Translations under genes and position numbers: made by a program
Notes under the pieces: generated by a model
What the model was told of the DNA's origin: nothing
What the model saw: only the letters and a program-made list of their open reading frames with translations
Databases searched by the model: none
DNA from: Candidatus Levybacteria bacterium RIFCSPLOWO2_02_FULL_37_18
Lineage (GTDB): Bacteria; Patescibacteriota; Microgenomatia; Levybacterales; UBA12049
Reading direction: 5' to 3'
Length of the DNA: 62,563 nt
Assembly: GCA_001784115.1 (NCBI GenBank)
Contig: MFPD01000002.1
Coordinates: 1 to 62,563, forward strand
Shown here: positions 21,557 to 57,826 of the stretch, piece by piece
How positions within the stretch are numbered: position 1 is the first letter of the stretch
Layout: each line of letters opens with the position of its first letter

Positions 21557-22828
21557 TTACGAACCGATTTTGAATTCAATCACGTCGCCGTCTTTGACAA
21601 TATAATCCCGTCCTTCAAGCCTTGCTCTCCCCGCTTCCCGCGAACCTTTCCAGCCTTTATTCTGAACAAAATCATCAAAACTTACTACTTCTGCTTTGAT
21701 AAATTTTTTTTCAAAGTCTGTGTGAATAACGCCCGCTGCATCAACTGCTTTTATTCCCTTTGGAACAGTCCAGGCACGCACTTCGTATTTTCCCCCTTGC
21801 CTCGCCGAAGCATCAGCGGAGGCGGGTGCTGTGAGAAATGAAATTAATCCTAATGTCTCGTATGCTTTCTTTATCAACCGCTCCAGTCCGGACTCTTCAA
21901 GACCCAAGTCTCCAAGGTATTCTTTTTGTTCATCTTCCGACAACACAGCAAGTTCCGATTCAATCTTGGCACAGATCACCACCATATTGTCATTCCCGCC
22001 CCGTGTCGTAGCACGGGGGGTAAACCTTGGCATCGTGAAAACGGGGCTCCAACGGGAGTCCATGGATCCCCGATCGGGGTCGGGGATGACAGAAAAAAGG
22101 AGTTGATTATATTCTTCAATTACTTTGGGGATATTTTCTTGTGTATATTGGTCTTCTGCAACATTAAGTACAATAATTTCAGGTTTTGAGGAAAGTAAAA
22201 AAAGATCCTTGACAACCTCCTGTTCTCCATCAATTAACCCAACATCTCTTGCAGGAATTCCCTTATTAAGTAATTCCTCAATTTTATCCAGTATATTTTG
22301 ACTTTTAACTTGAACTTTTGCCTTTTGCCTTTTGCCTTTTGCCTTTTCTAAAGTTTCTAAATCCGCAAGTATTAGTTCTGTTTGAATAACTTTATAGTCA
22401 GACATCGGATCAACCGAACCTTCTTTGATTACATTCGCATCTTCAAAAACTCGAACCACATGAGCAATAATGGAAACTTCCCGGATGTGGGACAAAAACT
22501 TATTACCAAGACCAGAACCTTCACTTGCTCCTTTTACCAATCCCGCAATATCTACAAATTCAACCGTTGCCGGTTTAATCGGCGGCCTCTTTCCAAACAA
22601 CACCTCGGGGGTGGCGCTTGACGACTCCCCCGAGGTTGAGGAACCACTTGCAACAATATCCGCCAAAGCTTCAAGTCTCTCATCCGGCACCGGAATTATT
22701 CCAACATTCGGTTCTATTGTTGCAAATGGGTAATTCGCAGCCAGCGCCTGCTGCTTTTTTAAGAGTGCATTGAACAAGGTACTCTTCCCCACATTTGGTA
22801 AACCAACAATCCCTATTGATAAATTCAT
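21557..22828 (-). CDS. ychF: ribosome-binding ATPase YchF with four in-frame inserts
   Basis: GLPNVGKST, NYPFATIEPN, DIAGLV, GVIHTDFEK, TGS domain. Confidence 0.95.
   Translation of the reverse strand: MNLSIGIVGLPNVGKSTLFNALLKKQQALAANYPFATIEPNVGIIPVPDERLEALADIVASGSSTSGESSSATPEVLFGKRPPIKPATVEFVDIAGLVKGASEGSGLGNKFLSHIREVSIIAHVVRVFEDANVIKEGSVDPMSDYKVIQTELILADLETLEKAKGKRQKAKVQVKSQNILDKIEELLNKGIPARDVGLIDGEQEVVKDLFLLSSKPEIIVLNVAEDQYTQENIPKVIEEYNQLLFSVIPDPDRGSMDSRWSPVFTMPRFTPRATTRGGNDNMVVICAKIESELAVLSEDEQKEYLGDLGLEESGLERLIKKAYETLGLISFLTAPASADASARQGGKYEVRAWTVPKGIKAVDAAGVIHTDFEKKFIKAEVVSFDDFVQNKGWKGSREAGRARLEGRDYIVKDGDVIEFKIGS
21989..22090. repeat. 102-nt palindromic element in frame in ychF
   Basis: GTCATTCCCG..CGGGAGTCC..GGATCCCCG..CGGGGATGAC. 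Confidence 0.85.
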
Positions 22829-26962: not shown

Positions 26963-27002
26963 GTTTCCACCCTTGGGGTGGAAACAAAGCTCCACCTGCG
27001 GA
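26963..27002. repeat. CACC-n-GGTG palindromic repeat
   Basis: GTTTCCACCCTTGGGGTGGAAAC..GCTCCACCTGCGGA; near-copies at 51213 and 52735. Confidence 0.8.
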
Positions 27003-27004
27003 AT

Positions 27005-28555
27005 TTAGCGATTTATAAGCAGGACGCGGTTTTTTTTGAATCCGTAAACCTGTTCTACCTGAGAAAAAAAAGAACTGCACAGAGCTCTAAATTCTTCGAA
27101 TTCCTCTGGTTTTTTTTCTTGATATTGACTGTTGTATAAGATTATGCCGTTTTTATTAAGAATCTCTCTAAGTTTTTTTAGAAAGTCCCCTTGGCGAGAT
27201 GACGGTGGATTCAAGGCACCTATGAAAAGATCAACTATAATTAAATCATACTTTCTATTAGCTGGTTTTTTATTCACCCACAAAACCGCATCCGAAATCA
27301 CCACTTTTGATGCTAATTTTGGATCAAGATTAAAGTGTTCTTTGGCAATTTGTACCATTATAGGATCTATCTCAACCGCTGTAATCTTTACATCAGGGAA
27401 GTATTTTTTTAAAAATTCAATAACCGTCCCCCCACCAACTCCAAGTATTAAACAATTTTTAACTTTTAATTTTGAACTTTTAACTTGGCTTATAAGCCTT
27501 CTCCACATCCACACAAACTCTCCTCCGCTTTGAGGGCCTCCTGAAAAAACCGTTTTTGATCCATACGATTTATCTATTAAAATGTGTCCATTTATATTGG
27601 AATGGAATACAGCTTTGGGCTTTTTGGCAAAAAGAGTACTAAATGTATACATTAATTTAAATATAGGGCTGTAAAATTTAATATATGCCGGCGGATATTC
27701 AAGATATTCTCCATGAAACCTGGTTTTAAATTCGGTATAGTTTTTCCATCGCTTATTAACATTTGGATACCGAGGATCATAGACGGATTCGAAATCAAAC
27801 ACTTTCATGCCCAATTTTTTGCCAAGCAAAATCCCCTCCCAAACCAATAAATAATTTGCCAGTAAATCATATCCTCTATTATTAATTCCTGTTTGGAAAT
27901 ACGATATAACAGGCTTATAAAAGCCATACCATACTACAGCGACCGGCTTTTTATCTTTAGGATCCAACCCAAACAATAAAAAAGAGTTATCTTTAAAAGA
28001 AACCCATTTTTTATGAAATTCATCATACGAGGGTACATAAAACTTTTTCATTTTTGAAAGATTTTTAAGAAGTTTATAAAACATTCGAAACTCACTGTCA
28101 TCCTTTTCATCTTTAAAAAATACCGGCTTAACAATTACTCCCATCTCTTTTGCTTTTTTAATATTTCGTCTGGCATTTTCGGAAAATGACTTAAAAATTT
28201 CTGTCTCAAAAGAAGCGATATTTATTCTTCTTGTCGCTGTATGGGCAAATCGAAAAAATGACTCTTGATATCCATTTTTTAGATAGTCTTGCTTGTTGAA
28301 TTTGTAAGCATGAGGTTCAATAACAATATATACACAGTTGTATTTTTTAGCTATTTTGTCGATTTTGGCAAACGGCATTGGGCCGACAGCATGCTGGATT
28401 TTAATAACAGAGTGATTTAATAATGGAACTCTCCTAATATAAATCTGTCTGCCGTCTATGACTTCCACATCCCATCCAAGTTTTTTAAGAAATTCGCCCC
28501 ACTGAAGAAATTGCCTGCCGTCCAATGCGGAAAGTAATACGTTATTTTTAGCCAT
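27005..28555 (-). CDS. FemABX/GNAT peptidyltransferase fused to a spermidine-synthase-like SAM methyltransferase
   Basis: FLQWGEF, FSENARRNIKKA, LLVWEGI..FDF (Fem); CLILGVGGG, VEIDP, YDLIIVD (MTase). Confidence 0.75.
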   Translation of the reverse strand: MAKNNVLLSALDGRQFLQWGEFLKKLGWDVEVIDGRQIYIRRVPLLNHSVIKIQHAVGPMPFAKIDKIAKKYNCVYIVIEPHAYKFNKQDYLKNGYQESFFRFAHTATRRINIASFETEIFKSFSENARRNIKKAKEMGVIVKPVFFKDEKDDSEFRMFYKLLKNLSKMKKFYVPSYDEFHKKWVSFKDNSFLLFGLDPKDKKPVAVVWYGFYKPVISYFQTGINNRGYDLLANYLLVWEGILLGKKLGMKVFDFESVYDPRYPNVNKRWKNYTEFKTRFHGEYLEYPPAYIKFYSPIFKLMYTFSTLFAKKPKAVFHSNINGHILIDKSYGSKTVFSGGPQSGGEFVWMWRRLISQVKSSKLKVKNCLILGVGGGTVIEFLKKYFPDVKITAVEIDPIMVQIAKEHFNLDPKLASKVVISDAVLWVNKKPANRKYDLIIVDLFIGALNPPSSRQGDFLKKLREILNKNGIILYNSQYQEKKPEEFEEFRALCSSFFSQVEQVYGFKKNRVLLINR

Positions 28556-31234: not shown

Positions 31235-31249
31235 AATACTAATAATTAC

Positions 31250-31330
31250 CAATCAACTAATCAACCAATAAATACCAATTTCCAATTATTAGTTGATTTG
31301 TTGATTTGAATATTGGTTGATTAGTTGATT
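31250..31330. repeat. CAAT/ATTG periodic imperfect hairpin
   Basis: CAACTAAT CAACCAAT ... ATTAGTTG ATTTGTTG; similar at 39030-39130 and 49880-49990. Confidence 0.65.
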
Positions 31331-31332
31331 TT

Positions 31333-31920: not shown

Positions 31921-32125
31921 CTAATCAACTAATCTACAAGTTTCGCAGTTCAACTCATCCAGATGTCATTGCGAGGAATGGTGAACGAAGTCGAGCCAAA
32001 CGAAGCAATCCCAAAAAGAGATTGCCACGCTTCCTCTGGTCACTCGCAATGACAGAGAACGCGAAACTCGTGTAATTATCCAATTATTAGTTGATTTGTT
32101 GATTTGATATTTGTTGATTCGTTAA
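31921..32125. repeat. nested repeat: GTCAT element (31965-32053) inside a CAAT/ATTG hairpin
   Basis: Outer CAACTAATC / ATTAGTTG arms, AGTTTCGC/GCGAAACT stem, inner GTCATTGCGAG..CTCGCAATGAC. Confidence 0.75.
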
Positions 32126-32127
32126 TT

Positions 32128-32550: not shown

Positions 32551-33378
32551 TGTTTCCGTAAATATCCGGCACTACTCTCTTCTTAACAGCGTTTTCATAC
32601 CAAGACCAAGATGCGGTCTATGATAATGATTGTTCATTTTTCTTGTAGGGAGCAGATACTCTGTAACGGTTGGTGTATTGGTATACTTTTTGTTTGAACT
32701 TGTCTTTAAACTCTGGTCCTCCGTCTGATTGAATCAGCTCAGTATGACCATTAAACCTTCTTTGCATACATGTATCCAGGAATGCTGCCCCATCAGAGCT
32801 GGTGAGCGAGGGACGAAGAATAACATCTGCCTCTTTTGAGAAGATATCAACGGCTGTAAATGCAAACACAGCTCCAAAGTCAATGGTATCCATCTGAATT
32901 ACTTCTCTGGGCTTTTCTGCTTTGGGCACAGGACATCTTTTTTGATTCTTTTTCCATTTACTTTTGATTACATACTTTTCTGCAAGGACTTCATAGATTT
33001 TAGGAACTGAGAGTTTTGTACCAAACTCAGTTTCAAGGAAATATTGAATCTTTTGTCCGCAGCAATCCATCTCTCTGTCTCGAAGCATCCATACCCGTCT
33101 TTTGAGTATTGCATCAACCTGACGTTTAAGACGGGGACCTTTCTTTGCTTTACTATATGAATCAAGAAATGAGGTTAAACCCATCGCAGCAATTGCCTGA
33201 ACCCAAAGCCTCACCGTATCTCTGTTAATCCGCAGTCTTTCTGCAATATGAGTTTTTGGCAATCCCTGCTCAAACAGTTCCCAGGCAAGAATAATCTTTG
33301 TTGTTTGTATCACTTCCATCATTATACCTTTACCAGCTACAGAAGATGCAGACGATATCTCCCGATTATTTATTGGCA
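32551..33378 (-). mobile_element. defective IS (HTH plus rve/DDE transposase, IS481-like)
   Basis: QMDT and QSDGGPEF present; the segment carrying the catalytic Glu is missing, and YHRPHLGLGMKT resumes in another frame; imperfect terminal IRs TGTTTCCGTAAATATCCGG / TGCCAATAAATAATCGGG. Confidence 0.75.
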
Positions 33379-33563
33379 GCCTCTATCAACAAACGAATGG
33401 AAAACCAATACATTTTTCTGATGTCCGCGCAACAATTGCAACAACAACAAATAACGGAAGAAGAACTGTAGATATCTTTGGAATAGATAAAACCAAACAA
33501 CCAGGTGGTTACCGCTATGTTCCAGAAATAAATGTGTGGGAAGTAATTTCTTCCATGGATTGA

Positions 33564-34172
33564 TTAATACTCGCTTCTTCCCTCCATTGCCCTTTGCAGA
33601 GTAACGTCATCTGCGTATTCAATATCCGCCCCAACCGGCAAACCCCGCCCAATACGCGTAATTCGTAATTCGTAATTCGTAATTCGTAATTGTTTTACTA
33701 TAAACATTGCTGTAGCTTCTCCCTCCATGGTCGGATTCGTCGCGAGTATCACTTCTATAAACTGTGAACCATTAACTGTGAACCTATCAAGCAATTGCTT
33801 TATATAAATTTCGTCGGGGCCAATATTATTTAAAGGATCAATTCTGCCATGAAGCACATGATACAATCCTTTGTAGGTTTTGCCTTTTTCCAAAGCCAAA
33901 ACATCTAAGGGCTGTTCTACAACACACATTATCGACGTATCCCGATTAGAATCGCTGCAAATACTACATGGGTCTGTTTCGCCGATCATATAGCAATTAC
34001 TGCAAATTACTGTCCCTTTTTTTAAATTTTCAACCGCAGCCGAAAACGTATCTAATTCGTGTTGTGGAACGTGTAATAAGTAAAACGTCAAACGCTGGGC
34101 TGTTTTTGGCCCGATACCTGGCAGTCTCTCAAAAGATTCTATAAGTTGCTGTATTGCTTTTGGTACTTTCAT
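33564..34172 (-). CDS. recR: recombination mediator RecR (two 7-mer inserts)
   Basis: LPGIGPKTAQRL, C4 zinc finger, EVILATNPTMEGEATA. Confidence 0.97.
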   Translation of the reverse strand: MKVPKAIQQLIESFERLPGIGPKTAQRLTFYLLHVPQHELDTFSAAVENLKKGTVICSNCYMIGETDPCSICSDSNRDTSIMCVVEQPLDVLALEKGKTYKGLYHVLHGRIDPLNNIGPDEIYIKQLLDRFTVNGSQFIEVILATNPTMEGEATAMFIVKQLRITNYELRITRIGRGLPVGADIEYADDVTLQRAMEGRSEY

Positions 34173-35074
34173 CGTAGTTCATCCGCTACCATCTCTGCAG
34201 TAGATAATATCTCAAGTTTTTCGAGCTGTTTTTCCTTCCCAACATAAATAGTGTTTGTTACGTATACCTTCTCAACGTCTGACTCCTCAAGCGTTTTAAC
34301 AGCGTCATCGGAAAAAACCGCGTGTGTTGCAAATACAATAACTTCTGAAAGACCATGTTGTTTTAAAAGTTTAGACGCTACTTGGATTGTCCCTCCGCTT
34401 GAAATCATGTCATCAACAATCAGAGCACGTTTACATGAATTACGTAAAGAACCAGAAATTGTATCTGCGGTTACAGTTCCAGAAACCAAATCTCGGTTTT
34501 TTTCTATTGCTACAAACTGCATAGTATTCAATAATGCAGATAATTGTTTTATTCTTCTAATCCCGCCCATATCCGGAGAAACGAGAACCGAATCAGAATC
34601 ATTCCACTTGTTTTTTATAATCTCCCCGGCAAATAGAGGCAAAGCTGACAAATGAGAAACCGGGACATTAAACAGCTCTGGTATGCGAATAGAATGAAGG
34701 TCAAACACAATTACTTTACTCACTCCCCTATTCTCTAAAATGTGAATAATTACATCCAAGGATACTGCTTCTCCGCTTCGAAATATATGATCTTGTCGCC
34801 CGTACCCAAGATATGGAATTACTGCGGTAATTGACTTTGCCCCGCTTCTTTTTAATCCATCAATAATAAAAAATAACTCCATATAATGTGAATCAGCAGG
34901 AATTGACGTGGACTGAACCACTACGCAATCCTTATCAACAACCGAATCAATAATTCTGACCCGTTTTTCTAAATCAGGAAATACGTGAATATCCAAAGGA
35001 GAAAGTTCTATTCCAAGATGAGATGATATTTTTTTTGCAAGATCGGGATTAGATGAACCAGAAAAGATTAACAT
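34169..35074 (-). CDS. prs: ribose-phosphate pyrophosphokinase, paralog 1
   Basis: PYLGYGRQD, VSPDMGG, VDDMISSGGT. Confidence 0.9.
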   Translation of the reverse strand: MLIFSGSSNPDLAKKISSHLGIELSPLDIHVFPDLEKRVRIIDSVVDKDCVVVQSTSIPADSHYMELFFIIDGLKRSGAKSITAVIPYLGYGRQDHIFRSGEAVSLDVIIHILENRGVSKVIVFDLHSIRIPELFNVPVSHLSALPLFAGEIIKNKWNDSDSVLVSPDMGGIRRIKQLSALLNTMQFVAIEKNRDLVSGTVTADTISGSLRNSCKRALIVDDMISSGGTIQVASKLLKQHGLSEVIVFATHAVFSDDAVKTLEESDVEKVYVTNTIYVGKEKQLEKLEILSTAEMVADELR

Positions 35075-35084
35075 TAATATATTA

Positions 35085-35170
35085 TAGAATTTATAATTTC
35101 AAATTTCCAATTTGTAATTTCCAATGGTTCATTTGAAATTTGATATTTGAAATTGGTAATTATTTGAAAT
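35085..35170. repeat. 7-mer-periodic AT-rich hairpin
   Basis: AATTTCA AATTTCC AATTTGT ... TGAAATT TGATATT TGAAATT. Confidence 0.65.
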
Positions 35171-35172
35171 AA

Positions 35173-36126
35173 TTAAAGGATAAGGTCTTTACTCATGGAC
35201 TCTCCGGTTTGGATTCGGCGGATTGCTTCCGCTAACAGATTTGCAACGGAAATAACAGTAATTTTTTTATTTTGTAATACTCCAGGTTTTGACGGGATGG
35301 TATCGGTGATAAGTACTTCATCAATGGCAGACTGTGAAATTTTTTCCAAAGCACCTCCTGTGAATAACCCATGCGTTGTAGAGGCTAAAATTCTGCGAGC
35401 CCCTCTTTTTTTAATAAGATTTGCAGCATTCACAAGCGTTGTTGCTGTATCAAGCATGTCGTCAACTAATAGCACGTCTTTACCATTAACATTTCCTATT
35501 ATCTCCAAAGCCTCTGATTTATTGTTTACTGCCATATCTCGCTCTTTATAAACGATTGCTATTCCTTCCGCGTTTAAAAGACGGGCATATCCTGTTGCTC
35601 GCTTTACTCCCCCTTTATCAGGCGAAGCAACTACCAGGTGCTTTAGTCTTTTCGACTTAATTACTGGAATAAGGGAATAACTCGCGTAGAGGTTATCCCA
35701 TGGACCAGTAATAAATCCTTGTTGTTGTTCTGAATGAATATCAACAGTTACAATCGTGTCTGCTCCGGCATTTTCAATAAGCCTTGCGACAACGGAAGAA
35801 GATATTGGCACTCGTGGCATTTCTTTCCTGTCTTGCCTGGAATAACCACAATATGGCAAAACCGCTATTATTTCCGATGCTGACGCTCGCTTGGCAGCGT
35901 CAATCATAAATATAAGCTCCATAAGATTATCATTGACAGGGGTACACGTTGATTGAATAACAAAAACATGTCGTCTTCGTAAATTGTGGGCAATTTTTAC
36001 TCGAATTTCACCGTCTGAAAATATAGTTACTGGTTCGAAAACTTCTTTTTTGAGGATTTTACCAATAAATTTTGCCAGCTTTGGGTTTGATCGACCGGTT
36101 AAAAGAATAAAATCATTAAAACCCAT
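35173..36126 (-). CDS. prs: ribose-phosphate pyrophosphokinase, paralog 2
   Basis: FSDGE, YSRQDRK, ASPDKGG, VDDMLDTATT. Confidence 0.92.
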   Translation of the reverse strand: MGFNDFILLTGRSNPKLAKFIGKILKKEVFEPVTIFSDGEIRVKIAHNLRRRHVFVIQSTCTPVNDNLMELIFMIDAAKRASASEIIAVLPYCGYSRQDRKEMPRVPISSSVVARLIENAGADTIVTVDIHSEQQQGFITGPWDNLYASYSLIPVIKSKRLKHLVVASPDKGGVKRATGYARLLNAEGIAIVYKERDMAVNNKSEALEIIGNVNGKDVLLVDDMLDTATTLVNAANLIKKRGARRILASTTHGLFTGGALEKISQSAIDEVLITDTIPSKPGVLQNKKITVISVANLLAEAIRRIQTGESMSKDLIL

Positions 36127-36176
36127 AGACGTAGTGCGTATTGTATCACGAGATCTTCCGGCAAGCAAGAAAATTA

Positions 36177-36455
36177 TTACTTTCCCAACAATCCGCTTAA
36201 GCCTCCACTCATTGATTGCAATTTTTTTGCAGCGACTTCTTGAGACTTTTTAATTGCTTCATTAACAGCTTCTTTTATGTCGTTATCTGATTTACCATTG
36301 GTCAGAAGCGTTTTAATTTTTTGATCTCCTGTTATAAGCACATGGACTCCGTTTTTGTCCACGCTTACCTCTTCTGCCTGTAATTGTCTTTGAATTTGCA
36401 TCGCCTGATCCCGCATTTTTTTAATATCGCTTATTTGTTGAAATGGATTAAACAT
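36177..36455 (-). CDS. YbaB/EbfC nucleoid-associated protein
   Basis: KKMRDQAMQIQRQL, VLITGDQKI; downstream of dnaX. Confidence 0.85.
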   Translation of the reverse strand: MFNPFQQISDIKKMRDQAMQIQRQLQAEEVSVDKNGVHVLITGDQKIKTLLTNGKSDNDIKEAVNEAIKKSQEVAAKKLQSMSGGLSGLLGK

Positions 36456-36469
36456 AAAGCACCTCCTCT

Positions 36470-37915
36470 CTACTTCCCTTTTAATTCTATCAGAACTTTA
36501 ACTGGATTTCCTGTTATTTCCGAGGCGACTTGTTCTAAAACCCTTACTGCTTTTTCTTCGGAAAGTTTTTCTTTATGGAATTGAAACGAAGTCTCTATGA
36601 CAAGCTCACTATCACTGAAGCTTTTTAATGAACATCCCCTGAGAACTCCGGCTAAGGAATGGTTGTGAGTTTTGACCTTATCAATTAATTGCCCCCAGAT
36701 TCTGTTATCGGTTTTCGGTTTACCGGTTAACTGATTAACTGATTGACTATTATCTGACAACTGAGAACTGAGAACCGATAACTGATTATTTTTTTCGATT
36801 CCCCATTCTATAATTGCTAATTCCAAAGGCAACTGCGGCAATACTGCATATCTCAATTCCTGATGCGCTTTTGAAAACAGTTCTACTAATCTTTTTATAT
36901 CCTCGATACTCATTTCTTGTTTCTTATTTCTTGTTTCTGTTTCTACTCCAACCTGCATTAAAAGATCAACGTGAAGTTTGGAAATTAACTGTTCGAGAAA
37001 GTATTTAATATCTGTTCCTTTCTCTATTACATCCTCAACTGTTGAAAGTGCGAACTTTGTATCTTTATTTTTTAGATGACTTACTATATTTTCTACGTAG
37101 TACTTTATACTTGCTACTTGATACTTTTCCTCGAGAAGCTCTTTGGTGATTTTTTCTCCACCAGATACTAAAACAAGCTCTTCTAAAATTTTTGCTCCTT
37201 CTCGAAAACTTCCATCTGACAATTTTGCAACTTCACCAAAAACCTCTTCGTCTATAGACAATTTTTCACCCTTTCCTATTCGATGAAAAGAACTAATAAG
37301 TTCTTCGTCTGTTGCGATATGGAATTGCACATGAAAACAACGAGAAACAATAGTTCCCGGCACTTTATGAGCTTCGGTTGTACAAAAGATAAACATGGCA
37401 TGAACAGGAGGCTCTTCCAAAGTCTTAAGTAGCGCATTAAAAGCATCTGTGGTAAGCATGTGTACTTCGTCAATTATGTATACTTTTTTCTTTGCGGACA
37501 CAGGCAACAGCTTAATTTTTTCCCGCAGATCTCTTATTTCTTCTATTCCCCTATTCGACGCTCCGTCAATTTCCAAGACATCAAGACTCGAACCATTCGT
37601 TATGGAAATACACTGCGCACACTCATTACAAGGCTCAATGTCTTCGACACTCTTAACTTTTAACTCAGAACCAAGAATTTTCCCTTTTTGTTCTTTGTTC
37701 TTAGTTTTTTGTTCTTTGTTAATTGCAAAACGTTTTTCGCAATTAACCGCTTTTGCCACAATCCGCGCAGTTGAGGTTTTTCCCAACCCCTTTGGACCTG
37801 TAAATAAAAATGCATGGGCAACGGAAGAAGAAAGAACAGGATATAACCTTTCTCTCAAATCTTTACTGTCAAGTTCTTCTATTTTTTGAGGCCGATACTT
37901 TCGATAATAAACCAT
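36470..37915 (-). CDS. dnaX: DNA polymerase III gamma/tau (four 7-mer-type inserts)
   Basis: YRKYRPQ, GPKGLGKTS, EIDGASNRG, IIDEVHML, NALLKTLEEPP. Confidence 0.97.
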   Translation of the reverse strand: MVYYRKYRPQKIEELDSKDLRERLYPVLSSSVAHAFLFTGPKGLGKTSTARIVAKAVNCEKRFAINKEQKTKNKEQKGKILGSELKVKSVEDIEPCNECAQCISITNGSSLDVLEIDGASNRGIEEIRDLREKIKLLPVSAKKKVYIIDEVHMLTTDAFNALLKTLEEPPVHAMFIFCTTEAHKVPGTIVSRCFHVQFHIATDEELISSFHRIGKGEKLSIDEEVFGEVAKLSDGSFREGAKILEELVLVSGGEKITKELLEEKYQVASIKYYVENIVSHLKNKDTKFALSTVEDVIEKGTDIKYFLEQLISKLHVDLLMQVGVETETRNKKQEMSIEDIKRLVELFSKAHQELRYAVLPQLPLELAIIEWGIEKNNQLSVLSSQLSDNSQSVNQLTGKPKTDNRIWGQLIDKVKTHNHSLAGVLRGCSLKSFSDSELVIETSFQFHKEKLSEEKAVRVLEQVASEITGNPVKVLIELKGK

Positions 37916-37918
37916 AGA

Positions 37919-38323
37919 CTAGTGGTGAATTCCTAACAAATGGGACAAACCATGGACGAGCAGTTCGTCGATTTTATCATCAACCAGCATTTCATCTTCG
38001 GCTGCTTCTTTAATCAGCTCAGGATACGACAATACGATATCTCCCAATCGAAGGATTTTTAATCCTCCTTCTCTATGAGGAGGAAGTACTACCGGCTCTC
38101 CCTCTGTTAAAGAAAACGATAAAATATTAGTCGTTTTATCAATGTCGCGATATTTTTTATTAATCTGACGCATTTTTCTGTTTCCTACAAAAGCAACAGA
38201 TACCTCAGACTGGTCAGATAACCCATGCTTTTTAAGCTCCGAAACAACAGTTGTGCGGATTCGCTTTCGATTTACTTTGTACCTGCTTTCAACAAATATA
38301 AAAACCGAAATTTCTTCACTCAT
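37919..38323 (-). CDS. ybeY: rRNA maturation endoribonuclease YbeY
   Basis: NKKYR..TNILSF, LGDI, HGLSHLLG. Confidence 0.93.
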   Translation of the reverse strand: MSEEISVFIFVESRYKVNRKRIRTTVVSELKKHGLSDQSEVSVAFVGNRKMRQINKKYRDIDKTTNILSFSLTEGEPVVLPPHREGGLKILRLGDIVLSYPELIKEAAEDEMLVDDKIDELLVHGLSHLLGIHH

Positions 38324-38529: not shown

Positions 38530-38655
38530 AAAAATTCCAATATCTAAATACTAAATAAATTCAAATGTCTAATGCCAATTCTTAAACAGTTTTTAACTTT
38601 GGTAATTTGTATTTTGATATTATTTAGAATTTACGATTTGTAATTTAGGATTTAG
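38530..38655. repeat. 7-mer-periodic hairpin element, close copy of 47785-47915
   Basis: Shared right arm TTTGG(T/A)ATTTGTATTTT(G/A)ATATTATTTAGAATTTA(C/T)GATTTGT(A/G)ATTTAGGATTTA. Confidence 0.8.
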
Positions 38656-39023: not shown

Positions 39024-39126
39024 AATACTACCAATACTACCAATAACCCAATCAATATGTAAATGCATACTAGAATTTTTAATTGGGTTATTGATTGGAT
39101 TATTTGAATATTGGATTATTGGGTTA

Positions 39127-40029
39127 TTAAACTTTTTCTAATACCGCAATTATTTCTTTAAGCGTTAGTTTGGTTGGTACCATCTTTGGATTCTTCGGCG
39201 TTCCGTTTAAAAGCATTTTTTTGGAAACATGAAGATACCACGTAGCCTCCGGATCAATTTTCTTTAACTTTTCATATGCTAGAGTTAGATCTATTTCGTT
39301 TTGAGTTTGTGAAGGCCTCGCCTTTATCCTAACGTATCCTTTTCTCGGATCTTTTCGTACTGCTAATACATATCCCATTTTTTGAGCAAGTTTTACCACC
39401 GAGTCATTTATTGTTTCAAATCCAATACCTTTTCCATATCTGGTGCTAAATTCTATTCCTTTTTCCTTTATTTCTATCTCTGCCCAAATTCTGTTTTTGA
39501 AATTATGGACTAACGCGTCGAGTACTTGCATTCCAAACTCTACATAATACTCATCGTCATCCGGCTTTTGCAGTTTTAATCCTTCCAAAACTCCCAAAAG
39601 AGAAAACTCATGATAATCAGCAGTCGGATTGTCCCAAAATACTTCCTTAAAATGATCAATATCTACGACAATTCTTACAATTCTATCAATCGCTTCTAGT
39701 TTGTCCTCTAAATGTTCTTTCCCTTCGTAGTTTTGAGTTTTAATAAGATTTGAGTTTTGAGTTCGCTTGACAAAGTCAAGCGTTCTGCTGGCAGCACACA
39801 CATTCTGGTCATTCGTCTCGTGATGATCAAGCGGCCCCATTCCCGTATCCACATGAATAACCTCATCTCCGTCTATCTTCTCTATCGGAGCTTTGAGTTT
39901 TCCAATTCGTTCCCCCGCAGGAACGAATTGGATATTTGCCGTATTCCATCCCGGAAAAAATCGCTTTAATAGCCACACTGAAGTAATCGCATCCCAATCA
40001 GGTGACGAGTGAGTAACTATAATTTTCAT
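39127..40029 (-). CDS. DHH/MYG1-like phosphoesterase
   Basis: IVTHSSPDWDA, VDTG, DHH. Confidence 0.6.
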   Translation of the reverse strand: MKIIVTHSSPDWDAITSVWLLKRFFPGWNTANIQFVPAGERIGKLKAPIEKIDGDEVIHVDTGMGPLDHHETNDQNVCAASRTLDFVKRTQNSNLIKTQNYEGKEHLEDKLEAIDRIVRIVVDIDHFKEVFWDNPTADYHEFSLLGVLEGLKLQKPDDDEYYVEFGMQVLDALVHNFKNRIWAEIEIKEKGIEFSTRYGKGIGFETINDSVVKLAQKMGYVLAVRKDPRKGYVRIKARPSQTQNEIDLTLAYEKLKKIDPEATWYLHVSKKMLLNGTPKNPKMVPTKLTLKEIIAVLEKV

Positions 40030-44665: not shown

Positions 44666-45655
44666 TTATTTTTCTTTTACCCCGTGGCCGCCGAATGCTT
44701 GGCGAAGATCTGCAACAAGTTTGGCAGCAAAGGAATTTTGAACTTCTGGATTAGTCTGTGATTGTCTTCTAAATTCAAGTGAGCCTTTTATTATAGGAAC
44801 AGGGACTCTTTCGTTTTCCGCTTCTTCTACAGTCCATTTCGCTTCTCCGGATTCTTCAATTACTCCAAGTACTTGCTCCAAACTCTTATCCTGATCAAAA
44901 ACTTCAACTGTTCTGTCCAGCATAAATCCGGATACCAATGTTCCTTTTTGATATAACCGAGCTACTTTGAGAAGGTCGAATTTGTATTCTGCTTTTTGCA
45001 GTACTCCAAATCCTTCCCCCAAACTCTGCATAAATCCATACTCAATACCATTATGTATCATTTTTACAAAATGCCCTGCGCCACCACTGCCAAAATATTC
45101 GTGCCCGCCATGTGGTTTTGCCAACGAATCTAAAATTGGCTTTATGAATTCATATCCGCACTCATCCCCACCCGCCATCAGCGGATATCCATGGTGAGCG
45201 GCTATCACACCGCCGCTCACTCCAATTCCCAAAAACCGAATACCTTTATTTTTAAACTGTTTAAATCGCTCTTCTGTATCCCGAAAGTGCGCATTTCCGC
45301 CATCTATTGCAATATCATCTTTCGAACAAAGAGTAAGAAGTTCATCCAAAACCGCTCTCGTTGCTTCCCCAGCCGTCACCATACACCACACTATACGTGG
45401 AGATTGTAATTGCCGAACAAGCTCTTCTATCGTTCCTGCAATTATTAGTTTTTCTGAGAAAGTATTTAGTATTTTGTATTTAGTATTTTGTATTTGCTTT
45501 GAATTTCTATATTCGGATTTCGGATTTAATTGAGATATGAGTTCTTCTACTGGCTGAGGTGATCTATTCCACACAACAACTTCATGTCCTTCTTTGAGGA
45601 GCTTAAAAACCATTCTCGAACCCATCTTGCCAAGTCCAATAAATCCAATTTTCAT
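44666..45655 (-). CDS. gnd: 6-phosphogluconate dehydrogenase (decarboxylating, short type) with 7-mer insert
   Basis: GLGKMG, IDGGN, GVSGG, GHFVKMIHNGIEYG. Confidence 0.95.
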   Translation of the reverse strand: MKIGFIGLGKMGSRMVFKLLKEGHEVVVWNRSPQPVEELISQLNPKSEYRNSKQIQNTKYKILNTFSEKLIIAGTIEELVRQLQSPRIVWCMVTAGEATRAVLDELLTLCSKDDIAIDGGNAHFRDTEERFKQFKNKGIRFLGIGVSGGVIAAHHGYPLMAGGDECGYEFIKPILDSLAKPHGGHEYFGSGGAGHFVKMIHNGIEYGFMQSLGEGFGVLQKAEYKFDLLKVARLYQKGTLVSGFMLDRTVEVFDQDKSLEQVLGVIEESGEAKWTVEEAENERVPVPIIKGSLEFRRQSQTNPEVQNSFAAKLVADLRQAFGGHGVKEK

Positions 45656-45781: not shown

Positions 45782-46318
45782 ATGACAGTTCAATCTCCAG
45801 ACAGTACACCTAATTACGAACAATTTGCGAAATTCGGCATTATTCTCAATAGGGTGTTACAACCACTGTCAGAGCGTAAAAGAGATGGCGCGCTGACGGC
45901 AATAGAACAAATGCGAACATATGTGAGGGATGTAAGTGATGTTTTTGGGAAACAATGCCCACAGGTACTTGTCATTGCTCTCCATGAGATTTTTTTAGAC
46001 AATGGTTTTCGAGAAAAACCTATTGTACATTTTAAATACGAAGACACGGAAGGAAACGGCGATTCTTCGGAAGGAAGATATTCGACTTCGTGGGAAGATA
46101 CAGCCCGCGATGCACTAAGAGATCAAAATGATTTTGGGAGGGCGAAGAGTGCTGTTGACGCATTACATGGAGCTGTAAACACTCTTAGGAGAGTAGACGG
46201 AATAAGTATTCAAGGTGCCGCAGACATTACAGTTGCCGTGTTGGGTAAAGAGCTAAATCCCCGACCCGCTCCTCTTTATAGTTTTAGCGCAAGAGTCGAA
46301 CCACCCTCTCTGGCATAG
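45782..46318 (+). CDS. hypothetical protein
   Basis: ORF preceded by TTGACT-16-TAGTAT. Confidence 0.6.
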   Translation: MTVQSPDSTPNYEQFAKFGIILNRVLQPLSERKRDGALTAIEQMRTYVRDVSDVFGKQCPQVLVIALHEIFLDNGFREKPIVHFKYEDTEGNGDSSEGRYSTSWEDTARDALRDQNDFGRAKSAVDALHGAVNTLRRVDGISIQGAADITVAVLGKELNPRPAPLYSFSARVEPPSLA

Positions 46319-47784: not shown

Positions 47785-47915
47785 GAATTTCTAATCTCTA
47801 ATATCTAAATCCTAAACAAATTACAAATTTTCAAAATCTAAAATCCTAAACAGTTTTGTGTTTTGGTTATTTGTATTTTAATATTATTTAGAATTTATGA
47901 TTTGTGATTTAGGAT
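47785..47915. repeat. 7-mer-periodic hairpin element
   Basis: AATCTCT AATATCT AAATCCT AAACAAA ... TTATTTAG AATTTATG ATTTGTG ATTTAGG. Confidence 0.8.
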
Positions 47916-48637
47916 TTAATTAATACTGCTCGTACTGGTGAACCATCGGACGAAACTCTCAAAGGCAGGCATATCAACTTGTATTCTCCTTCTGGAACTT
48001 CTGATAGATCAAGTCCTTCCGCAATTACAATCCCTGCTTTTAAAAGAGCTGTGTGAACCGGATGTCCTGGATTTTTTTCTTTCTCAATTCCCAGAAAGTC
48101 TGTCCCTACTAAAACAGCTCCTTTTTTAAGGAGGTATTCTGCTCCTTTTAAAGAAAGTGATATATAGCTATCAGGAAATGTTGGTTGTTTAAGGAGTTTA
48201 TAATTTCCTGTTTTAAAAAGTATCCGATCTCCTTTTTTAATACTGAATTGAACGAGATCTTCTGGAAGAATTTCTAGATCATACGTCATTCTGGCAAGGT
48301 CGCCCAGGCGACCGCGTCCAGAATCTCTCTTTTTTTGATTCTGGAGTCCTCTGGATAAACCAGAGTCCCCAGAATGACGACTAAACATGTCTGCTAAATC
48401 CAAAACTCGGCACGGGCCAATTAGTTTTTCTAAATCTATCATATCAATATTTGATCCTTTTTCAACAAAATGTGAAGGAGCATCAATGTGAGTTCCTGTG
48501 TGGCTTGAAAAGGATAACTGGGAAAACCCAACGCCGTGACTTTTTACAGTAGTTTTTACTTCGATATGAGGTTTCGGATCACCCCACCACACAAGCATGT
48601 TGTCGTGAATTGGAAGGGTTATGTCATAAATCTTCAT
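47909..48637 (-). CDS. cyclase family (kynurenine formamidase-like) metallohydrolase with in-frame palindromic insert (48285-48378)
   Basis: HTGTHIDAPSHF, GTDFLGIE, HTALL, DGSPVRAV. Confidence 0.9.
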   Translation of the reverse strand: MKIYDITLPIHDNMLVWWGDPKPHIEVKTTVKSHGVGFSQLSFSSHTGTHIDAPSHFVEKGSNIDMIDLEKLIGPCRVLDLADMFSRHSGDSGLSRGLQNQKKRDSGRGRLGDLARMTYDLEILPEDLVQFSIKKGDRILFKTGNYKLLKQPTFPDSYISLSLKGAEYLLKKGAVLVGTDFLGIEKEKNPGHPVHTALLKAGIVIAEGLDLSEVPEGEYKLICLPLRVSSDGSPVRAVLIKS

Positions 48638-49860
48638 GGCCGAAATAGTTTTGAAACGTCTTTAAATGTAATGAGCAAAATAAGAGTAAGCAGCACAATC
48701 ATGCCAATTTGATGAATAAACCCCTCTATTCTTTGATTTACTTTTTTGCCAGTTATTCCTTCGATTGCAATAAAAAACAACCGCCCGCCGTCCAAAGCCG
48801 GAATGGGTAGAATATTAAATACAGCCAAAGACATGGACAAAACTCCGGCTAAATTCAAAACTCCTAATATTCTTTCTTTTACATCCGGAATTTGCACAAT
48901 CGTGCCAACCAACGAATAGATTCCAACCGGCCCTGCAACTCCTTCGGAAACCGGTGCCACTGTTTTTCTTTGTAAAGATACGGCAATGAGCCGCTTTAAG
49001 ATTTGAAAATTATATCCCATTAGATTTATCGGATGGACAATCCCGCTTAACAATTTTTGGCCTGGAGTTTTGTAATCTAAAACAGCTGTGATAGCGCCAA
49101 AAAACCCAATTCCCATTGCTCCTTCACCTTTTGGCGGATTGACCCGGGGGACTAACGCTTCCCGAGTTTCTTTTTGGGTTTTTATATCTTCAAATACAAT
49201 TGTAATTTCCTTGCCTTTGTTTTTATTGACAATAGCAACAAACTGCTTTAAATCAGTTACCTGTATTTCGTTGATTTTTTTAATTTTTGAAAGCGGAGCT
49301 AAACCTGCTTTTTGAGCCGGAGAATTTTTGGAAACACTGCTTACGACCAGTTCTGTCTTGTTAGTTTGAATAACACCTAAAAACGTATAATCTCCAAGTA
49401 ATGGAATTTCTGTTTTAAAATTTGAAATAAATAAAAATACATAGAATATCACTGCTGCTAATACCGCGTTCATAATAACTCCGGCCACAACAACCGCTAA
49501 TTTCTGAGGAGCAGACCGCGCATAAAACGCCCTCCTAACATCAGTATTAGGTATAGAGTATTGAGTATTAAGTATTTTTTTCTTTTTGCCTGATACTTTA
49601 TACTTGCTACTTGATACTGGCAGGCGGAGCCTGCCGGCTCCTGCTTCGTCTTCGCCGTATAACTTTACAAATCCTCCAATTGGGAGCCAATTTATGGAAT
49701 ATTCCGTCTCGCCTTTTTTTATAGAAAATGCTTTCGGTGGAAACCCAAATCCAAATTCTTCAACTTTAATTCCTAATTTTTTGGCAACCAAAAAATGCCC
49801 TAACTCATGGATGAGAACTAATACTGAAAGTATGAGTAGGAAAAGTAAAGCTGTTAACAT
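48634..49860 (-). CDS. rseP: RseP-like M50 intramembrane protease with PDZ domain and repeat-derived insert
   Basis: HELGH, GFGFPP, LPIGGFV, NILPIPALDGG. Confidence 0.92.
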   Translation of the reverse strand: MLTALLFLLILSVLVLIHELGHFLVAKKLGIKVEEFGFGFPPKAFSIKKGETEYSINWLPIGGFVKLYGEDEAGAGRLRLPVSSSKYKVSGKKKKILNTQYSIPNTDVRRAFYARSAPQKLAVVVAGVIMNAVLAAVIFYVFLFISNFKTEIPLLGDYTFLGVIQTNKTELVVSSVSKNSPAQKAGLAPLSKIKKINEIQVTDLKQFVAIVNKNKGKEITIVFEDIKTQKETREALVPRVNPPKGEGAMGIGFFGAITAVLDYKTPGQKLLSGIVHPINLMGYNFQILKRLIAVSLQRKTVAPVSEGVAGPVGIYSLVGTIVQIPDVKERILGVLNLAGVLSMSLAVFNILPIPALDGGRLFFIAIEGITGKKVNQRIEGFIHQIGMIVLLTLILLITFKDVSKLFRP

Positions 49861-49998
49861 AGACTATATTATATCAAATAAACAAATCAGTAGTGAATCA
49901 ACAAATAAATACCAATAATCCAATCAACTAATCAACAAATATTGGATAATTAGTTGATTTGACATTAGTTGATTAGATGATTTCTATTGGTAGTATTC

Positions 49999-51212: not shown

Positions 51213-51249
51213 TACACCCTTGGGGTGGAAACGAGACTCCACCCGCGGA
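51213..51249. repeat. CACC-n-GGTG repeat (35/37 identical to 52735-52771)
   Basis: TACACCCTTGGGGTGGAAACGAGACTCCACCCGCGGA. Confidence 0.85.
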
Positions 51250-51739: not shown

Positions 51740-52621
51740 TCATGTTGAGCTCGATTCAGCATCCTTCTTTGGTTTTGCCTTTGTTTTCTTTTGGGTTGTC
51801 TTTTTCTTTTCTTCCTTTGCCTCAGCCGCGTTTGACGCTGTCTCCTCTTTAGCTTTTTGTTCTTTTGGTGCTCCATTTGATACCTTTGATACTTCTGGTA
51901 CTTTTGATACTTCTTTCGCTTGCTTTCTTCCCTCAATCCAAGCATCTACAATATGAACAACGATAAGCTTGAGACTTCCGACGGCATCATCATTTGCAGG
52001 TATGGGATAATCAATTACCAAAGGATCTGCATTGGTATCAACAATTCCAACCGTAGTAACTCCCATTTTTTGCGCCTCTCTTACCGCTAAGTCTTCCAAA
52101 TGAGTATCAATAATAAACAACGCGTCGGGGATTGCTTGTATAGTTGATACTCCGCCGTATAATCTTTCTAATTTTACTTTTTCTTTTTCCCAAAGTCCGA
52201 CTTCTCTTTTTGTATATTTGGCTTTTTCTTCATCATTCCTAATTTTTACTTCTAAATCTTTTAGTTTTTTGTAATTTTTTGCAACTTCTGAGAAATTAGT
52301 TAATGTCCCGCCGATCCATCTCTCGGTTGCGTAAAACAAACCGTCTGCACCTGTTTCATAAGCTCGCTTTATATTTTCGAGAACAAGAGGTTGAGCTTGC
52401 CTTTTGGTGCCGACAATAAGAAGGGTCCCTCCCCGCTGTGCAAGCAAACGAACGTACTGGGCAGCTTCGTCTAATCCTTTCTTGGTTTTGACAAGATCAA
52501 TAATGTGGATGTTATCCCTGGCTTCAAAAATAAAATCCCGGGCTTTGGGGTTTTGGCGGGTAACCTGGTGGCCAAAATGACAACCGGCTTCCAATAATTC
52601 TTCTAAAATTATTTCTCTCAT
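51740..52621 (-). CDS. rpsB: 30S ribosomal protein S2
   Basis: LLEAGCHFGH, RWIGGTLTN, PANDDA. Confidence 0.97.
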   Translation of the reverse strand: MREIILEELLEAGCHFGHQVTRQNPKARDFIFEARDNIHIIDLVKTKKGLDEAAQYVRLLAQRGGTLLIVGTKRQAQPLVLENIKRAYETGADGLFYATERWIGGTLTNFSEVAKNYKKLKDLEVKIRNDEEKAKYTKREVGLWEKEKVKLERLYGGVSTIQAIPDALFIIDTHLEDLAVREAQKMGVTTVGIVDTNADPLVIDYPIPANDDAVGSLKLIVVHIVDAWIEGRKQAKEVSKVPEVSKVSNGAPKEQKAKEETASNAAEAKEEKKKTTQKKTKAKPKKDAESSST

Positions 52622-52734: not shown

Positions 52735-52771
52735 TACACCCTTGGGGTGGAAATGAGGCTCCACCCGCGGA
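52735..52771. repeat. CACC-n-GGTG repeat
   Basis: TACACCCTTGGGGTGGAAATGAGGCTCCACCCGCGGA. Confidence 0.85.
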
Positions 52772-52824
52772 AAACACCTCTTTCTTGCTTTTTAGAAGCA
52801 TTTGGCATACAATGGCTTTCTTGT

Positions 52825-54032: not shown

Positions 54033-55119
54033 ATGACAACTGTAGAAACACACCCAGGAAGAAGAGAAGTCGAACCTTTTCCTTTTTCTCTTCCCATTGT
54101 TACCAGACTTGGAGACACTCCTATATCAAACGCAGATATAGAAGCATATGCTAAAAAAAAAGGCGTAACAACTGCAAGCGGAACACTTCTTACCGCAGAA
54201 AAAATATTCGCAAATACGGGAGTTTCCACACGTTTTGAATCTGGTCCTTTACAAACCCAGGAAAGCATGGCACGAAGTATAGCTGCAGAACTTGCAGAAG
54301 CTTATGGCGGCCCCCCGAATGCTATTGTTGTTTCAAGTAACCCACCCCCAGAGAAAAAATTTGGCGTTCGCAGGATGGAACGAGTTGCATCAAAGAGGAA
54401 TACTGGATGAACCTCCCACGGAAAGTAATAGGGTTCCTGGTCAGTACTTTGAAGTAAATGCCGCTTGTTCCGGTCTAGTGGTTGCGCTTGCTCACTTGTA
54501 CACACATGCTTCTTATTATCATGGAAAACTGGTCTATCTCATTGCTACCGAAGGAGGATATCGAAAAACGCTTCCGCCTCTTGAGGAGGATGATGGAGAA
54601 ACCGGCTCACTACAGAGAACTCTTTTTACAGATGGAGCTGCTGGGATACGAGGAAGATATGGAATTGATTTTACGATAGTAAAAAAACCGCTAATAAAGC
54701 TATTCTGTGATGCGGAAAAAACGCTTTGTATTCCTATGGCTCCTGCTTCCCCACCATCTTTTACTTTAGAAATTCCTCCGCCAAACGGAATTTTTCAACG
54801 AATGAAAGGAAATCCTGTATTCAAATGGACGAACAGAGAACTTCCTGCAGCGATCCGAGAAACTATTAAAGGTACTAACGCAAAAAAAGTAATTCTCCAC
54901 CAGGCAAACGGAAGAATTATCGAAATGCAACAAAGACTATTCCCTCATCTTGATTTTCCTAATCACATAAAAGATACCGGAAACACTTCCTCTGCGTCTA
55001 TTTTGTTTGCACTTTCCGAAGAGATAAAAAGAGGAACTATTTCAAAAGGAGAAGAAGTAGGACTTATTGGATTCGGCGGCGGGCTTATGATTGCGGGAGC
55101 AGTAGTAAAGTTTGGATAA
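54033..55119 (+). pseudogene. FabH/KAS III-like ketosynthase, one frameshift near 54340-54349
   Basis: Two overlapping ORFs; VNAACSG, ILHQAN, GNTSSAS (Cys-His-Asn triad), GFGGG. Confidence 0.8.
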
Positions 55120-55143
55120 ACTTTATTTTCTTATCGCTTCTTT

Positions 55144-55557
55144 TTAACCGAAACTTTTCAACGCCTGTACAAAGGAAAATTTTGTTTTTTCTTTAAATCG
55201 CCCGTCTGCGGTAATGAGTTTGGCTTTCCTTCTTTTGGCAATGACTGCATACAGCATGTCATACACTGAAGTTTTATACTTTTTAGCAAGCTTTCCTTAC
55301 TCAATAAGATCAACTTTTTCTTCTGTAGAAGTACCAAACTGAAGACTATAAAGAAATTCAAGGCTTTTTGTAATTGTCCTACTTGTGGTATCTGATTTTG
55401 TTGCCAAAGCGTTTGCAATTTCAATAAAGGCAAATTTTGGAACAACTATCTGCTCTTCTCCACGTTTAAACTTTTCGAACAAAAATAATGCAGGCTCACT
55501 TTCTTCTTCATCCGGTTTGACCCATTTAAAAATGACCGATGCATCAACTACAATCAT
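55144..55557 (-). pseudogene. PIN/VapC toxin with in-frame TAA at 55297-55299
   Basis: IVVDASV..E..NAL; the frame continues past the stop as GKLAKKYKTSVYDMLYAVIA..LITAD. Confidence 0.85.
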
Positions 55558-55799: not shown

Positions 55800-55918
55800 A
55801 GTATGATTGTACAATGATACTAAAAACCTGTCAAAATGGAAAGAGGTTCTGTTTACTATAAGTTATTGACATTGGAATACCCCGGTGATATTCTTCCCGT
55901 TATCACTGTCCAAACGAT

Positions 55919-56866: not shown

Positions 56867-56874
56867 ATACAAAT

Positions 56875-57806: not shown

Positions 57807-57826
57807 TCTCCTGCCTAATAGTATGG

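Follow-up and report, generated by a model that had tools for sequence, protein, structure and literature searches.

How do short tandem arrays of 7-nt units come to lie in frame within recR, dnaX and other essential genes of a bacterium with a tiny genome? The arrays in question are located in a stretch of 62,563 nucleotides (the window) of contig MFPD01000002.1 from Candidatus Levybacteria bacterium RIFCSPLOWO2_02_FULL_37_18, a groundwater bacterium of the candidate phyla radiation (CPR). Its DNA is AT-rich (38% GC), and so are the array units themselves. Heptamer repeats were recognised in 2007 as a peculiarity of bacterial genomes and are still unexplained. The present lineage amounts to an informative natural experiment, in that the arrays fall within proteins that are conserved and can be aligned, and hundreds of orthologues are available for tracing how they changed. 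We conclude that they are a lineage-wide property of Levybacteria and related Microgenomates, and not copies of one inserted sequence. On balance, we regard them as heptanucleotide simple-sequence repeats that local template misalignment in a 7-nt register makes and homogenises and that selection then filters. Both the dominance of period 7 inside the essential genes of a minimal genome and the comparative evidence for turnover of units at constant length are new.

Tandem arrays were called with Tandem Repeats Finder (TRF) over the full window, and gene identities were taken from Pfam or PDB matches. A RecR-based scan of species-representative genomes provided 80 syntenic loci of Levybacteria (858 kb), and assembled contigs of public runs were used as strain-level data. 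Individual loci are denoted by L numbers. The window contained 26 period-7 arrays against 2.0 expected from 40 order-3 Markov shuffles, in addition to 11 arrays of period 8 (2.25 expected) and 5 of period 14 (0.35 expected). The 80 loci held 278 period-7 arrays as compared to 31.6 in shuffles, an 8.8-fold excess. Periods 14 (72 vs. 5.0) and 21 (16 vs. 1.6) were enriched approximately 10- to 14-fold, and the neighbouring periods 2.5-fold (period 6), 2.0-fold (period 8) and 2.9-fold (period 9), with periods 6, 8, 9 and 12 all in the range of 2- to 3.3-fold. Within coding sequences, where codon shuffles of the called genes served as background, 149 period-7 arrays were observed and 21 expected, and periods 6, 9 and 12 were enriched just 1.6- to 2.7-fold. 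Period 7 is thereby the commonest tandem-repeat class even within genes, although it is no multiple of three. Head-to-tail 7-nt copies beyond compositional expectation, over-represented relative to neighbouring periods, are what characterises heptanucleotide simple-sequence repeats. Period-7 arrays were also present in loci labelled Roizmanbacteria (12) and Shapirobacteria (3), of about 21 kb each, and there were none in 50 kb of E. coli K-12. The array edges are fuzzy, which makes array length modulo 3, in coding as compared to non-coding DNA, uninformative.

An initial annotation, made from the sequence alone, had listed many of these arrays and expected a period-7 signal above background. 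The signal was borne out in the window and in genes, nearly all of the listed arrays were recovered by TRF, and the gene identities hold apart from one DHH assignment (below). The annotation also stated that each locus uses a different 7-mer, which is mostly the case: 122 distinct canonical units were counted among 298 arrays, no listed unit dominates, and there is no fixed, family-specific unit of the kind known from short tandemly repeated repetitive (STRR) sequences or from the TAACTGA and GGGAATC repeats. Exceptions are AAATCCG-type units, which recur at 2664, 6388 and 45512 in the window, and a 25-mer shared by dnaX and rseP. Unit sharing amounted to 2.3% within genomes and 1.5% between genomes, a difference that is not significant and lies inside the null range, and genome-specific unit families were rejected on this weak signal.

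The recR gene carries two repeat sites:
33657–33691, minus strand: recR array; period 7, 5.0 copies, 100% in TRF; (ATTACGA)x5 on the sense strand.
33757–33784, minus strand: second recR site; 14-nt direct repeat, GGTTCACAGTTAAT / GGTTCACAGTTTAT on the sense strand.

The first array, for which four copies had been annotated and five perfect copies were found, encodes QLRITNYELRIT and overlaps the conserved L-K/R-I-T-R-I-G strand. The conserved I-T codons in the invariant motif ITRIG come from its last unit, suggesting that units are built on local conserved codons. By PDB alignment, the array region is 2 amino acids longer than in the solved RecR (LK--PFGVKVTRI vs. LRITNYELRITRI). The second site had been read as a heptamer array as well; the repeat is real, with approximately 1.8 copies by eye, which is under the TRF threshold. 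At this second site, L008, L030 and L045 have period-7 arrays without length excess. The peptides LRITNYELRIT and NSEFRIQNS given in the annotation are correct.

At the main recR site, the best period is 7 or 14 in 42 of the 81 orthologues, and the unit differs between species: ATTACGA in the window, GTTCAAA in L004, ATCTCAA in L019, AACTCAA in L038, CTCCCAA in L049 and ATCCCAA in L060. A segment of 57 nt (19 amino acids) is common to 59 species, 16 of which exceed the 99th percentile of a null that kept the column compositions but sampled the columns independently, breaking the linkage within species (0.6 expected). The window and L004 are neighbours in a tree of RecR and DnaX and have perfect arrays of equal length, (ATTACGA)x5 and (GTTCAAA)x4.6, the units of which differ at four of the seven positions. 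The arrays of L060 (CAAATCC) and L049 (CAACTCC) differ by a single A>C change that is repeated in four successive units. The minor length classes of the RecR segment are 23–25 amino acids, with none at 12, and the sole case of 26 amino acids is a hairpin insert. GC-rich hairpins were observed within the array of eight RecR orthologues. Several RecR orthologues have a stem made from the conserved I-A-K codons that immediately precede the array.

The combination of uniform arrays, lineage-specific units, fixed length and saturated silent sites requires repeated homogenisation at the DNA level. Wholesale replacement of units at a fixed length and frame points to templated conversion rather than to simple gain or loss of units, and the replacement between species may be described as concerted evolution. 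Contig depth summed over the (AATTCGT)5 array (33554–33707) in four runs reached approximately 100–450 times that of the flanks, many contigs end at the array, and loose sequences past it agree poorly with each other. The high depth stems from identical perfect heptamer runs in many other organisms, and perfect arrays of the AATTCGT unit are thus common across groundwater and soil communities.

Four further sites were identified in dnaX:
36700–36785, minus strand: linker inverted array pair; TTCGGTT x3.1 (36700–36721) and CTGAGAA x4.6 (36754–36785).
36913–36944, minus strand: array, TTTCTTG x4.7 on the plus strand; encodes ...TETRNKKQEMS.
37101–37126, minus strand: array, AAGTATC-type on the sense strand; the segment has 18 amino acids in every orthologue.
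37640–37750, minus strand: insert in the Zn-module loop, about 28 amino acids relative to E. coli gamma.

The site at 37101 was ungapped in 66 of 66 orthologues. Six of these carry near-perfect AAGTATC- or AAATATC-type arrays above the 99th percentile, as compared to 0.7 expected. The alignment region of the 36913–36944 array also has arrays in L019 and L039, and in L019 one perfect unit is found at two separate dnaX sites. The linker had been annotated as a hairpin, and its arms at 36701–36720 and 36766–36785 do form a 20-nt inverted pair with 85% complementarity, which folds only modestly better than shuffles (z -1.9). The Zn-loop insert begins with a hairpin at 37718–37747 (13 nt, 92% complementary), the left arm of which consists of conserved V-N-C-E codons, suggesting that inverted copies of local sequence, here of the V-N-C codons, also occur. 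Directly after the hairpin comes (AACAAAG)x4.9 (37687–37720 in TRF), then a short copy in inverted orientation and another small array. For the insert as a whole the fold has a z of -5.3, similar to that of L077 (z -5.2), and the loop spans 15 to 108 nt among orthologues. A near-perfect palindrome, (GATAGAA)x8.4 then (TTCTATC)x8.0, was observed directly upstream of dnaX in the Roizmanbacteria-labelled L085 (9873–9990).

Arrays in other genes of the window are:
4553–4585, plus strand: hisH-like amidotransferase (GATase) gene; (AATTCAG)x4.7, 100%, 5 amino acids longer than the solved HisH.
22315–22347, minus strand: ychF; (CTTTTGC)x4.7, perfect, absent from the initial list.
27457–27486, minus strand: GNAT/methyltransferase gene; TTTTAAC x4.3.
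39749–39782, minus strand: hypothetical gene; short array, TTTGAGT x2.1 (39749–39763 in TRF), with a hairpin.
45461–45527, minus strand: gnd; AGTATTT x5 (45461–45495) and TTCGGAT x2.3 (45512–45527).
49543–49635, minus strand: rseP; inverted array pair, AGTATTA-type (49543–49576) and TGATACT-type (49591–49618), with a GC hairpin.
51876–51912, minus strand: variable C-terminal tail of rpsB; period 9, 4.1 copies in TRF, in agreement with the annotated 9-mer version.

The ychF array lies in a helical segment that, by PDB alignment, is no longer than in H. influenzae YchF. The gnd arrays lie inside an insert of 24–34 amino acids relative to two Microgenomates orthologues. In rseP, the GC hairpin reads GGCAGGC-GGA-GCCTGCC and the whole region is 18 amino acids longer than in three orthologues. 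The locus at 39749–39782 had been assigned to a DHH gene. Its array is confirmed, with only 2.1 copies, and the DHH match scores 21 bits against a cutoff of 28, leaving a conserved hypothetical gene as host. There the array abuts a perfect 8-bp hairpin, CGCTTGAC-AAA-GTCAAGCG, which is kept in L005, L016 and L047.

The initial annotation had described the sites that it listed as in-frame inserts, with three units (21 nt) preserving the frame. This description fits only some loci: by the refuting condition that the annotation itself had set, array-less orthologues have the same length at three places. From the alignments, the dnaX Zn loop, rseP, gnd and hisH hold true insertions, whereas at the main recR site, dnaX 37101 and ychF the periodic DNA occupies a pre-existing segment of equal length. 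Across nine orthologue families, 17 of 57 strong coding arrays added no length relative to array-less orthologues. Coding arrays gather at a small number of hot spots; RecR and the DHH-like protein have two each, and DnaX has three. The annotated 21-nt signature was not recovered: the Zn-loop and general insert lengths showed no peak at 21 nt, and turnover by plus or minus three units was rejected on the lengths of the RecR segment, the Zn loop and the inserts. Transposon footprints with 7-bp target-site duplications were rejected as well, since they cannot give constant-length replacement of units and cycles of insertion and excision shift the frame. Taken together, the alignments suggest that a local copying process rewrites array segments more often than it inserts new DNA. 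The proposal of a generative mechanism with a 7-nt register is thus supported as regards a process at the DNA level, by the dominance of period 7 and the uniform, species-specific units, but not, as stated, as regards inserts.

Only 146 of the 304 arrays lie in coding DNA, although this accounts for 89.5% of the data. The density per 10 kb is 1.8 in coding sequences and 10.6–16.4 in non-coding DNA, that is, 6 to 9 times higher between genes. An inverted partner array within 200 nt was found for 33 of the 158 intergenic or gene-edge arrays, as compared to 3 in a reversed-sequence control, and for just one of the 146 coding arrays. In the coding arrays the A-rich strand is the sense strand (51% A). 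A stop triplet in any rotation of the consensus unit was present in 26% of sense units, 66% of antisense units and 70% of intergenic units. The encoded peptides are hydrophilic with a periodicity of 7 residues. Copy number ends sharply near five (57 arrays with about 5 copies, one with 6), and array length peaks at 31–35 nt (43 of 73), whether coding or not. Perfect GC-containing hairpins within 15 nt of arrays numbered 16 against 2.9 expected, several of them orthologous. Arrays were present in 21% of co-directional, 13% of divergent and 3% of convergent spacers (1 of 36 of the latter), and showed no orientation bias in spacers. A terminator role of the intergenic pairs was rejected, since only one of the 36 convergent spacers has an array.

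The intergenic elements of the window, none of which is assigned to a strand, are:
2664–2754: AAATCCG and TTTCGAA arrays in inverted orientation, reaching across the hisD stop and the spacer that follows; 6388–6520 holds a related pair.
31248–31331: period-8 inverted arrays of the ATTTGTTG / ATTAGTTG family; copies at 32086–32127, 39094–39128 and 49922–49982.
35095–35154: inverted pair AATTTCC / ATTTGAA between two prs genes; fold z -2.75.
38539–38655: element, approximately 130 nt long, whose inverted arms are heptamer-periodic; present a second time at 47786–47918.

These elements occur as small families of 2–4 copies, and most coding arrays are unique. The two copies of the 130-nt element match over 57 nt (38598–38654 and 47862–47918) with 93% identity, and 31281–31322 matches 32079–32119 with 95%. 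The window's excess of period 8 is due to the ATTTGTTG / ATTAGTTG family and is much weaker in related loci (2-fold). The prs genes (ribose-phosphate pyrophosphokinase) are tandem paralogues at 35173–36168 and 34169–35074 on the minus strand, with the heptamer-array hairpin between them.

In the mechanism that we favour, template misalignment of the replication type, in a 7-nt register, would build the arrays out of local sequence. Misalignment on the same strand would duplicate the adjacent heptamer; in genes, more often, a heptamer would be copied over its neighbour with the length unchanged. Strand-switching would create inverted copies and thereby hairpin-capable pairs. Selection would leave arrays common and paired between genes, and within genes would keep only arrays that preserve the frame and contain no stops in the three cycled frames. 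The surviving gene arrays would be those that encode hydrophilic peptides in permissive segments, with approximately 4.5–5 units (31–35 nt). The excess, the location, the conservation of sites, the constant-length turnover of units and the stability among strains are direct observations; the misalignment and the conversion step are inferred, with concerted evolution as indirect evidence for slippage, and the 7-nt step may be a property of the replisome, as Mrazek hypothesised.

Several observations weigh against this reading. It gives no reason for a step of 7 nt over 6 or 8. Period 7 occurs in just 17 of 258 lineage-specific inserts, and a systematic test for inverted flank copies in such inserts was negative (13 vs. 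18 in the control), so that such copies were rejected as a rule that holds for inserts in general. Near-identical strains did not reveal any slippage event, be it a change in copy number or in unit. The identical imperfect arrays at unrelated loci, the 25-mer and the 130-nt element, suggest some copying between loci. Furthermore, single-unit slippage within a gene is a frameshift, and the route to five units is unclear unless conversion dominates.

Copying between loci also figures in an alternative that we find doubtful, in which miniature mobile palindromic elements, resembling Rickettsia palindromic elements (RPE), repetitive extragenic palindromes (REP) or miniature inverted-repeat transposable elements (MITE), insert in frame into genes and spread between loci, and the arrays represent their arms or what remains of them. 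It would account for the inverted array pairs of the dnaX Zn-loop inserts, rseP and the dnaX linker (36700–36785), several of which fold far better than shuffles, for the two intergenic families and for the GC-rich hairpins inside the arrays of eight RecR orthologues. It would also account for the 25-mer of the dnaX 37101 array, which is identical to rseP 49594–49618 in a different reading frame and was found in a metagenome-collection scan in the ArgS of a Levybacteria-like genome (L081), in a type IX secretion system (T9SS) sorting domain and in one further contig. These three unrelated metagenome matches could be due to chance, given the size of the collection, and in L081 the two arms flank native conserved ArgS sequence with no discrete insert. 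In-frame palindromic insertion of the RPE type was seen at the dnaX Zn loop, rseP and gnd but not at recR, dnaX 37101 or ychF. The coding arrays are mostly solo, their units are highly diverse with little sharing within genomes and merge into flanking conserved codons, and nearly a third of the strong ones, as described above, add no length. No transposase, RAYT or GIY-YIG gene adjoins any array in the window, the sole candidate being an rve fragment at 32618–33322. An unlikelier proposal is a dedicated system, in which a protein recognises or writes 7-nt periodic DNA or RNA and the coding copies are spill-over; candidates are Avd-like 'IVS' four-helix-bundle proteins, or a post-transcriptional regulator as proposed for TAACTGA repeats. 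The avoidance of convergent spacers, which places arrays at promoters and leaders and not at terminators, the characteristic length of 31–35 nt independent of coding status and the conservation of sites across long divergence are in line with it, as is the regulatory role proposed for leader heptamers (MacGregor 2015, PMC4679880). On the other side, the units have no consensus for a sequence-specific reader, the arrays lack an orientation bias in spacers, and genes for reverse transcriptase, primase-polymerase, PF05635, RAYT and GIY-YIG were not found in the 62.5-kb window, nor was any other foreign or enzyme gene associated with the arrays there.

Phase-variable genes classically contain non-triplet tandem repeats within their reading frames, and H. 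influenzae uses heptameric repeats in this manner (PMC8262952). That the arrays are contingency repeats, switching genes by gain or loss of single units, is nevertheless highly improbable, since the hosts dnaX, recR, ychF, rseP, rpsB, hisH and gnd are housekeeping genes, not surface or accessory ones, and would be costly to switch off, and copy numbers are about 5 or fewer. The arrays are also stable among strains. In same-species clusters (at least 90% identity, about 9–22 contigs each) the lengths of DnaX, HisH, Gnd, RpsB, HisD and the methyltransferase were identical, with 2–7 strain variants per protein, all of one length. The sole strain indel is a loss of 3 amino acids in RseP, in the GC hairpin adjoining the array. 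Contigs from four samples showed no indels over 33400–38000, and no copy-number polymorphism was observed in the assembled contigs. Finally, an AT-rich genome with AT-rich units could have produced such arrays by chance, or assembly could have created them. This reading is already refuted by the 7- to 13-fold excess above Markov-3 and codon shuffles, by the recurrence of identical arrays in independent assemblies from at least 9 samples, and by array positions that are in frame and conserved in 80 other genomes.

Beyond local misalignment as such, we tentatively raise a replication-linked 'periodicity drive' in CPR bacteria, in which template switching with a fixed 7-nt step, both direct and inverted, would continuously write over permissive parts of essential genes without changing their length, giving rise to micro-arrays of approximately 32 nt and making them uniform again. 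A replisome or repair make-up particular to the lineage, or a dedicated protein partner, might be required for it. If true, protein sequence would be written by a mutational force that has so far gone unrecognised, and the drive would offer a handle on the bacterial preference for 7 nt. If the phenomenon is general, a purely mutational process designs short protein segments in the essential genes of minimal genomes. For CPR proteins, the arrays are also a source of error in alignment, in homology modelling and in phylogenetics based on indels.

Known systems share some of these features. RPEs are in-frame palindromic repeats in housekeeping genes, tolerated as surface segments, and are copies of defined sequence families of 100–150 bp. 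Here, the arms are locus-specific heptamer arrays, many at pre-existing rather than added positions. Template-switch or quasi-palindrome mutagenesis, known from the Ripley model and from work of the Lovett laboratory in E. coli, explains templated multi-base changes by which imperfect direct or inverted repeats become perfect with no net change in length, and also hairpins from adjacent sequence. It is a rare event at single reporter sites, and to our knowledge has not been described as a genome-wide force on essential genes with a 7-nt register. In Borgs, the units of intragenic repeats are reported to be multiples of three. The Borg repeats are, according to Schoelmerich et al. (2023, PMC9879509), pervasive direct repeats that evolve fast, give rise to novel disordered regions and are all but missing from the host. 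Both they and the arrays described here arise locally, evolve fast and create new protein segments, but ours are short, non-triplet 7-nt arrays that pervade a cellular genome.

A close precedent is the study of Mrazek, Guo & Shah (2007, PNAS 104:8472), which, as summarised in two later papers (PMC4679880, PMC4692102), found heptanucleotide repeats to be over-represented in prokaryotes, mostly between genes, and proposed polymerase slippage over approximately 7 nt as the cause. The initial annotation knew of no description of a mechanism of this type, which is thus wrong in part, as far as these summaries go. According to them, the repeats occur chiefly in non-pathogens with large genomes, and multiples of three dominate coding regions. 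Tandem 7-nt units are the most over-represented class in both cases; differing from the summaries, our genome is tiny, period 7 dominates in coding sequences, array sites are conserved, and units are replaced while the length stays constant. The GGGAATC repeats of Xanthomonas and the GGGGA(C/T)T repeats of Nostoc have a mode of about 4 units and form inverted pairs (Rehm et al. 2015, PMC4692102). Their arrays lie between the same gene pairs in related species and change fast in length and sequence, with one G-rich, quadruplex-prone unit per genus and mainly intergenic positions (PMC4692102), whereas here more than 100 AT-rich units are found, and many arrays are translated as part of housekeeping proteins. 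In marine Beggiatoaceae, cyanobacteria and Bacteroidetes, TAACTGA repeats occur in sets of 2–6 copies, concentrated in spacers upstream of genes (MacGregor 2015, PMC4679880). A few of these and of the cyanobacterial STRR heptamers are translated into peptides with a periodicity of 7 residues, as here, but the unit is fixed and the coding copies mostly concern hypothetical proteins or protein ends (PMC4679880), whereas our arrays lie in conserved cores of essential genes. A literature search found no paper on such arrays in Patescibacteria.

Some minor observations were made alongside. T9SS sorting domains are typical of Bacteroidota. In L083, the 25-mer (25–49) is translated as SIKYQVASIKY within a C-terminal sorting domain for type IX secretion (Por_Secre_tail, 36.6 bits), where it presumably fills the usual strand-loop-strand length, judging by eye from the domain pattern. 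A GC-rich element, (A)CACCCTTGGGGTGGAAAC..GACTCCACC(C/T)GCGGA, is located at gene ends (26968–27003, 51213–51249 and 52735–52772) and represents a repeat family distinct from the heptamer arrays. Beside recR, an open reading frame (ORF) of 234 amino acids (32618–33322, minus strand) contains HTH_23 and a sub-threshold match to the rve integrase core (31.2 bits against a cutoff of 32.6), and is probably a decayed transposase of the IS3/IS481 type. Another ORF (45782–46318, plus strand; 178 amino acids) lies between gnd and zwf in the opposite orientation. It has no Pfam match and a GC content of 0.44 as compared to 0.38 for the window, and no arrays were found flanking it as arms. The fatty-acid synthesis genes at 54292–58324 look fragmented and may be pseudogenes: a C-terminal piece of KAS-III stands alone, a short-chain dehydrogenase is split into two ORFs (56995–57342 and 57429–57656), and an acyl-transferase domain is truncated (57881–58324).

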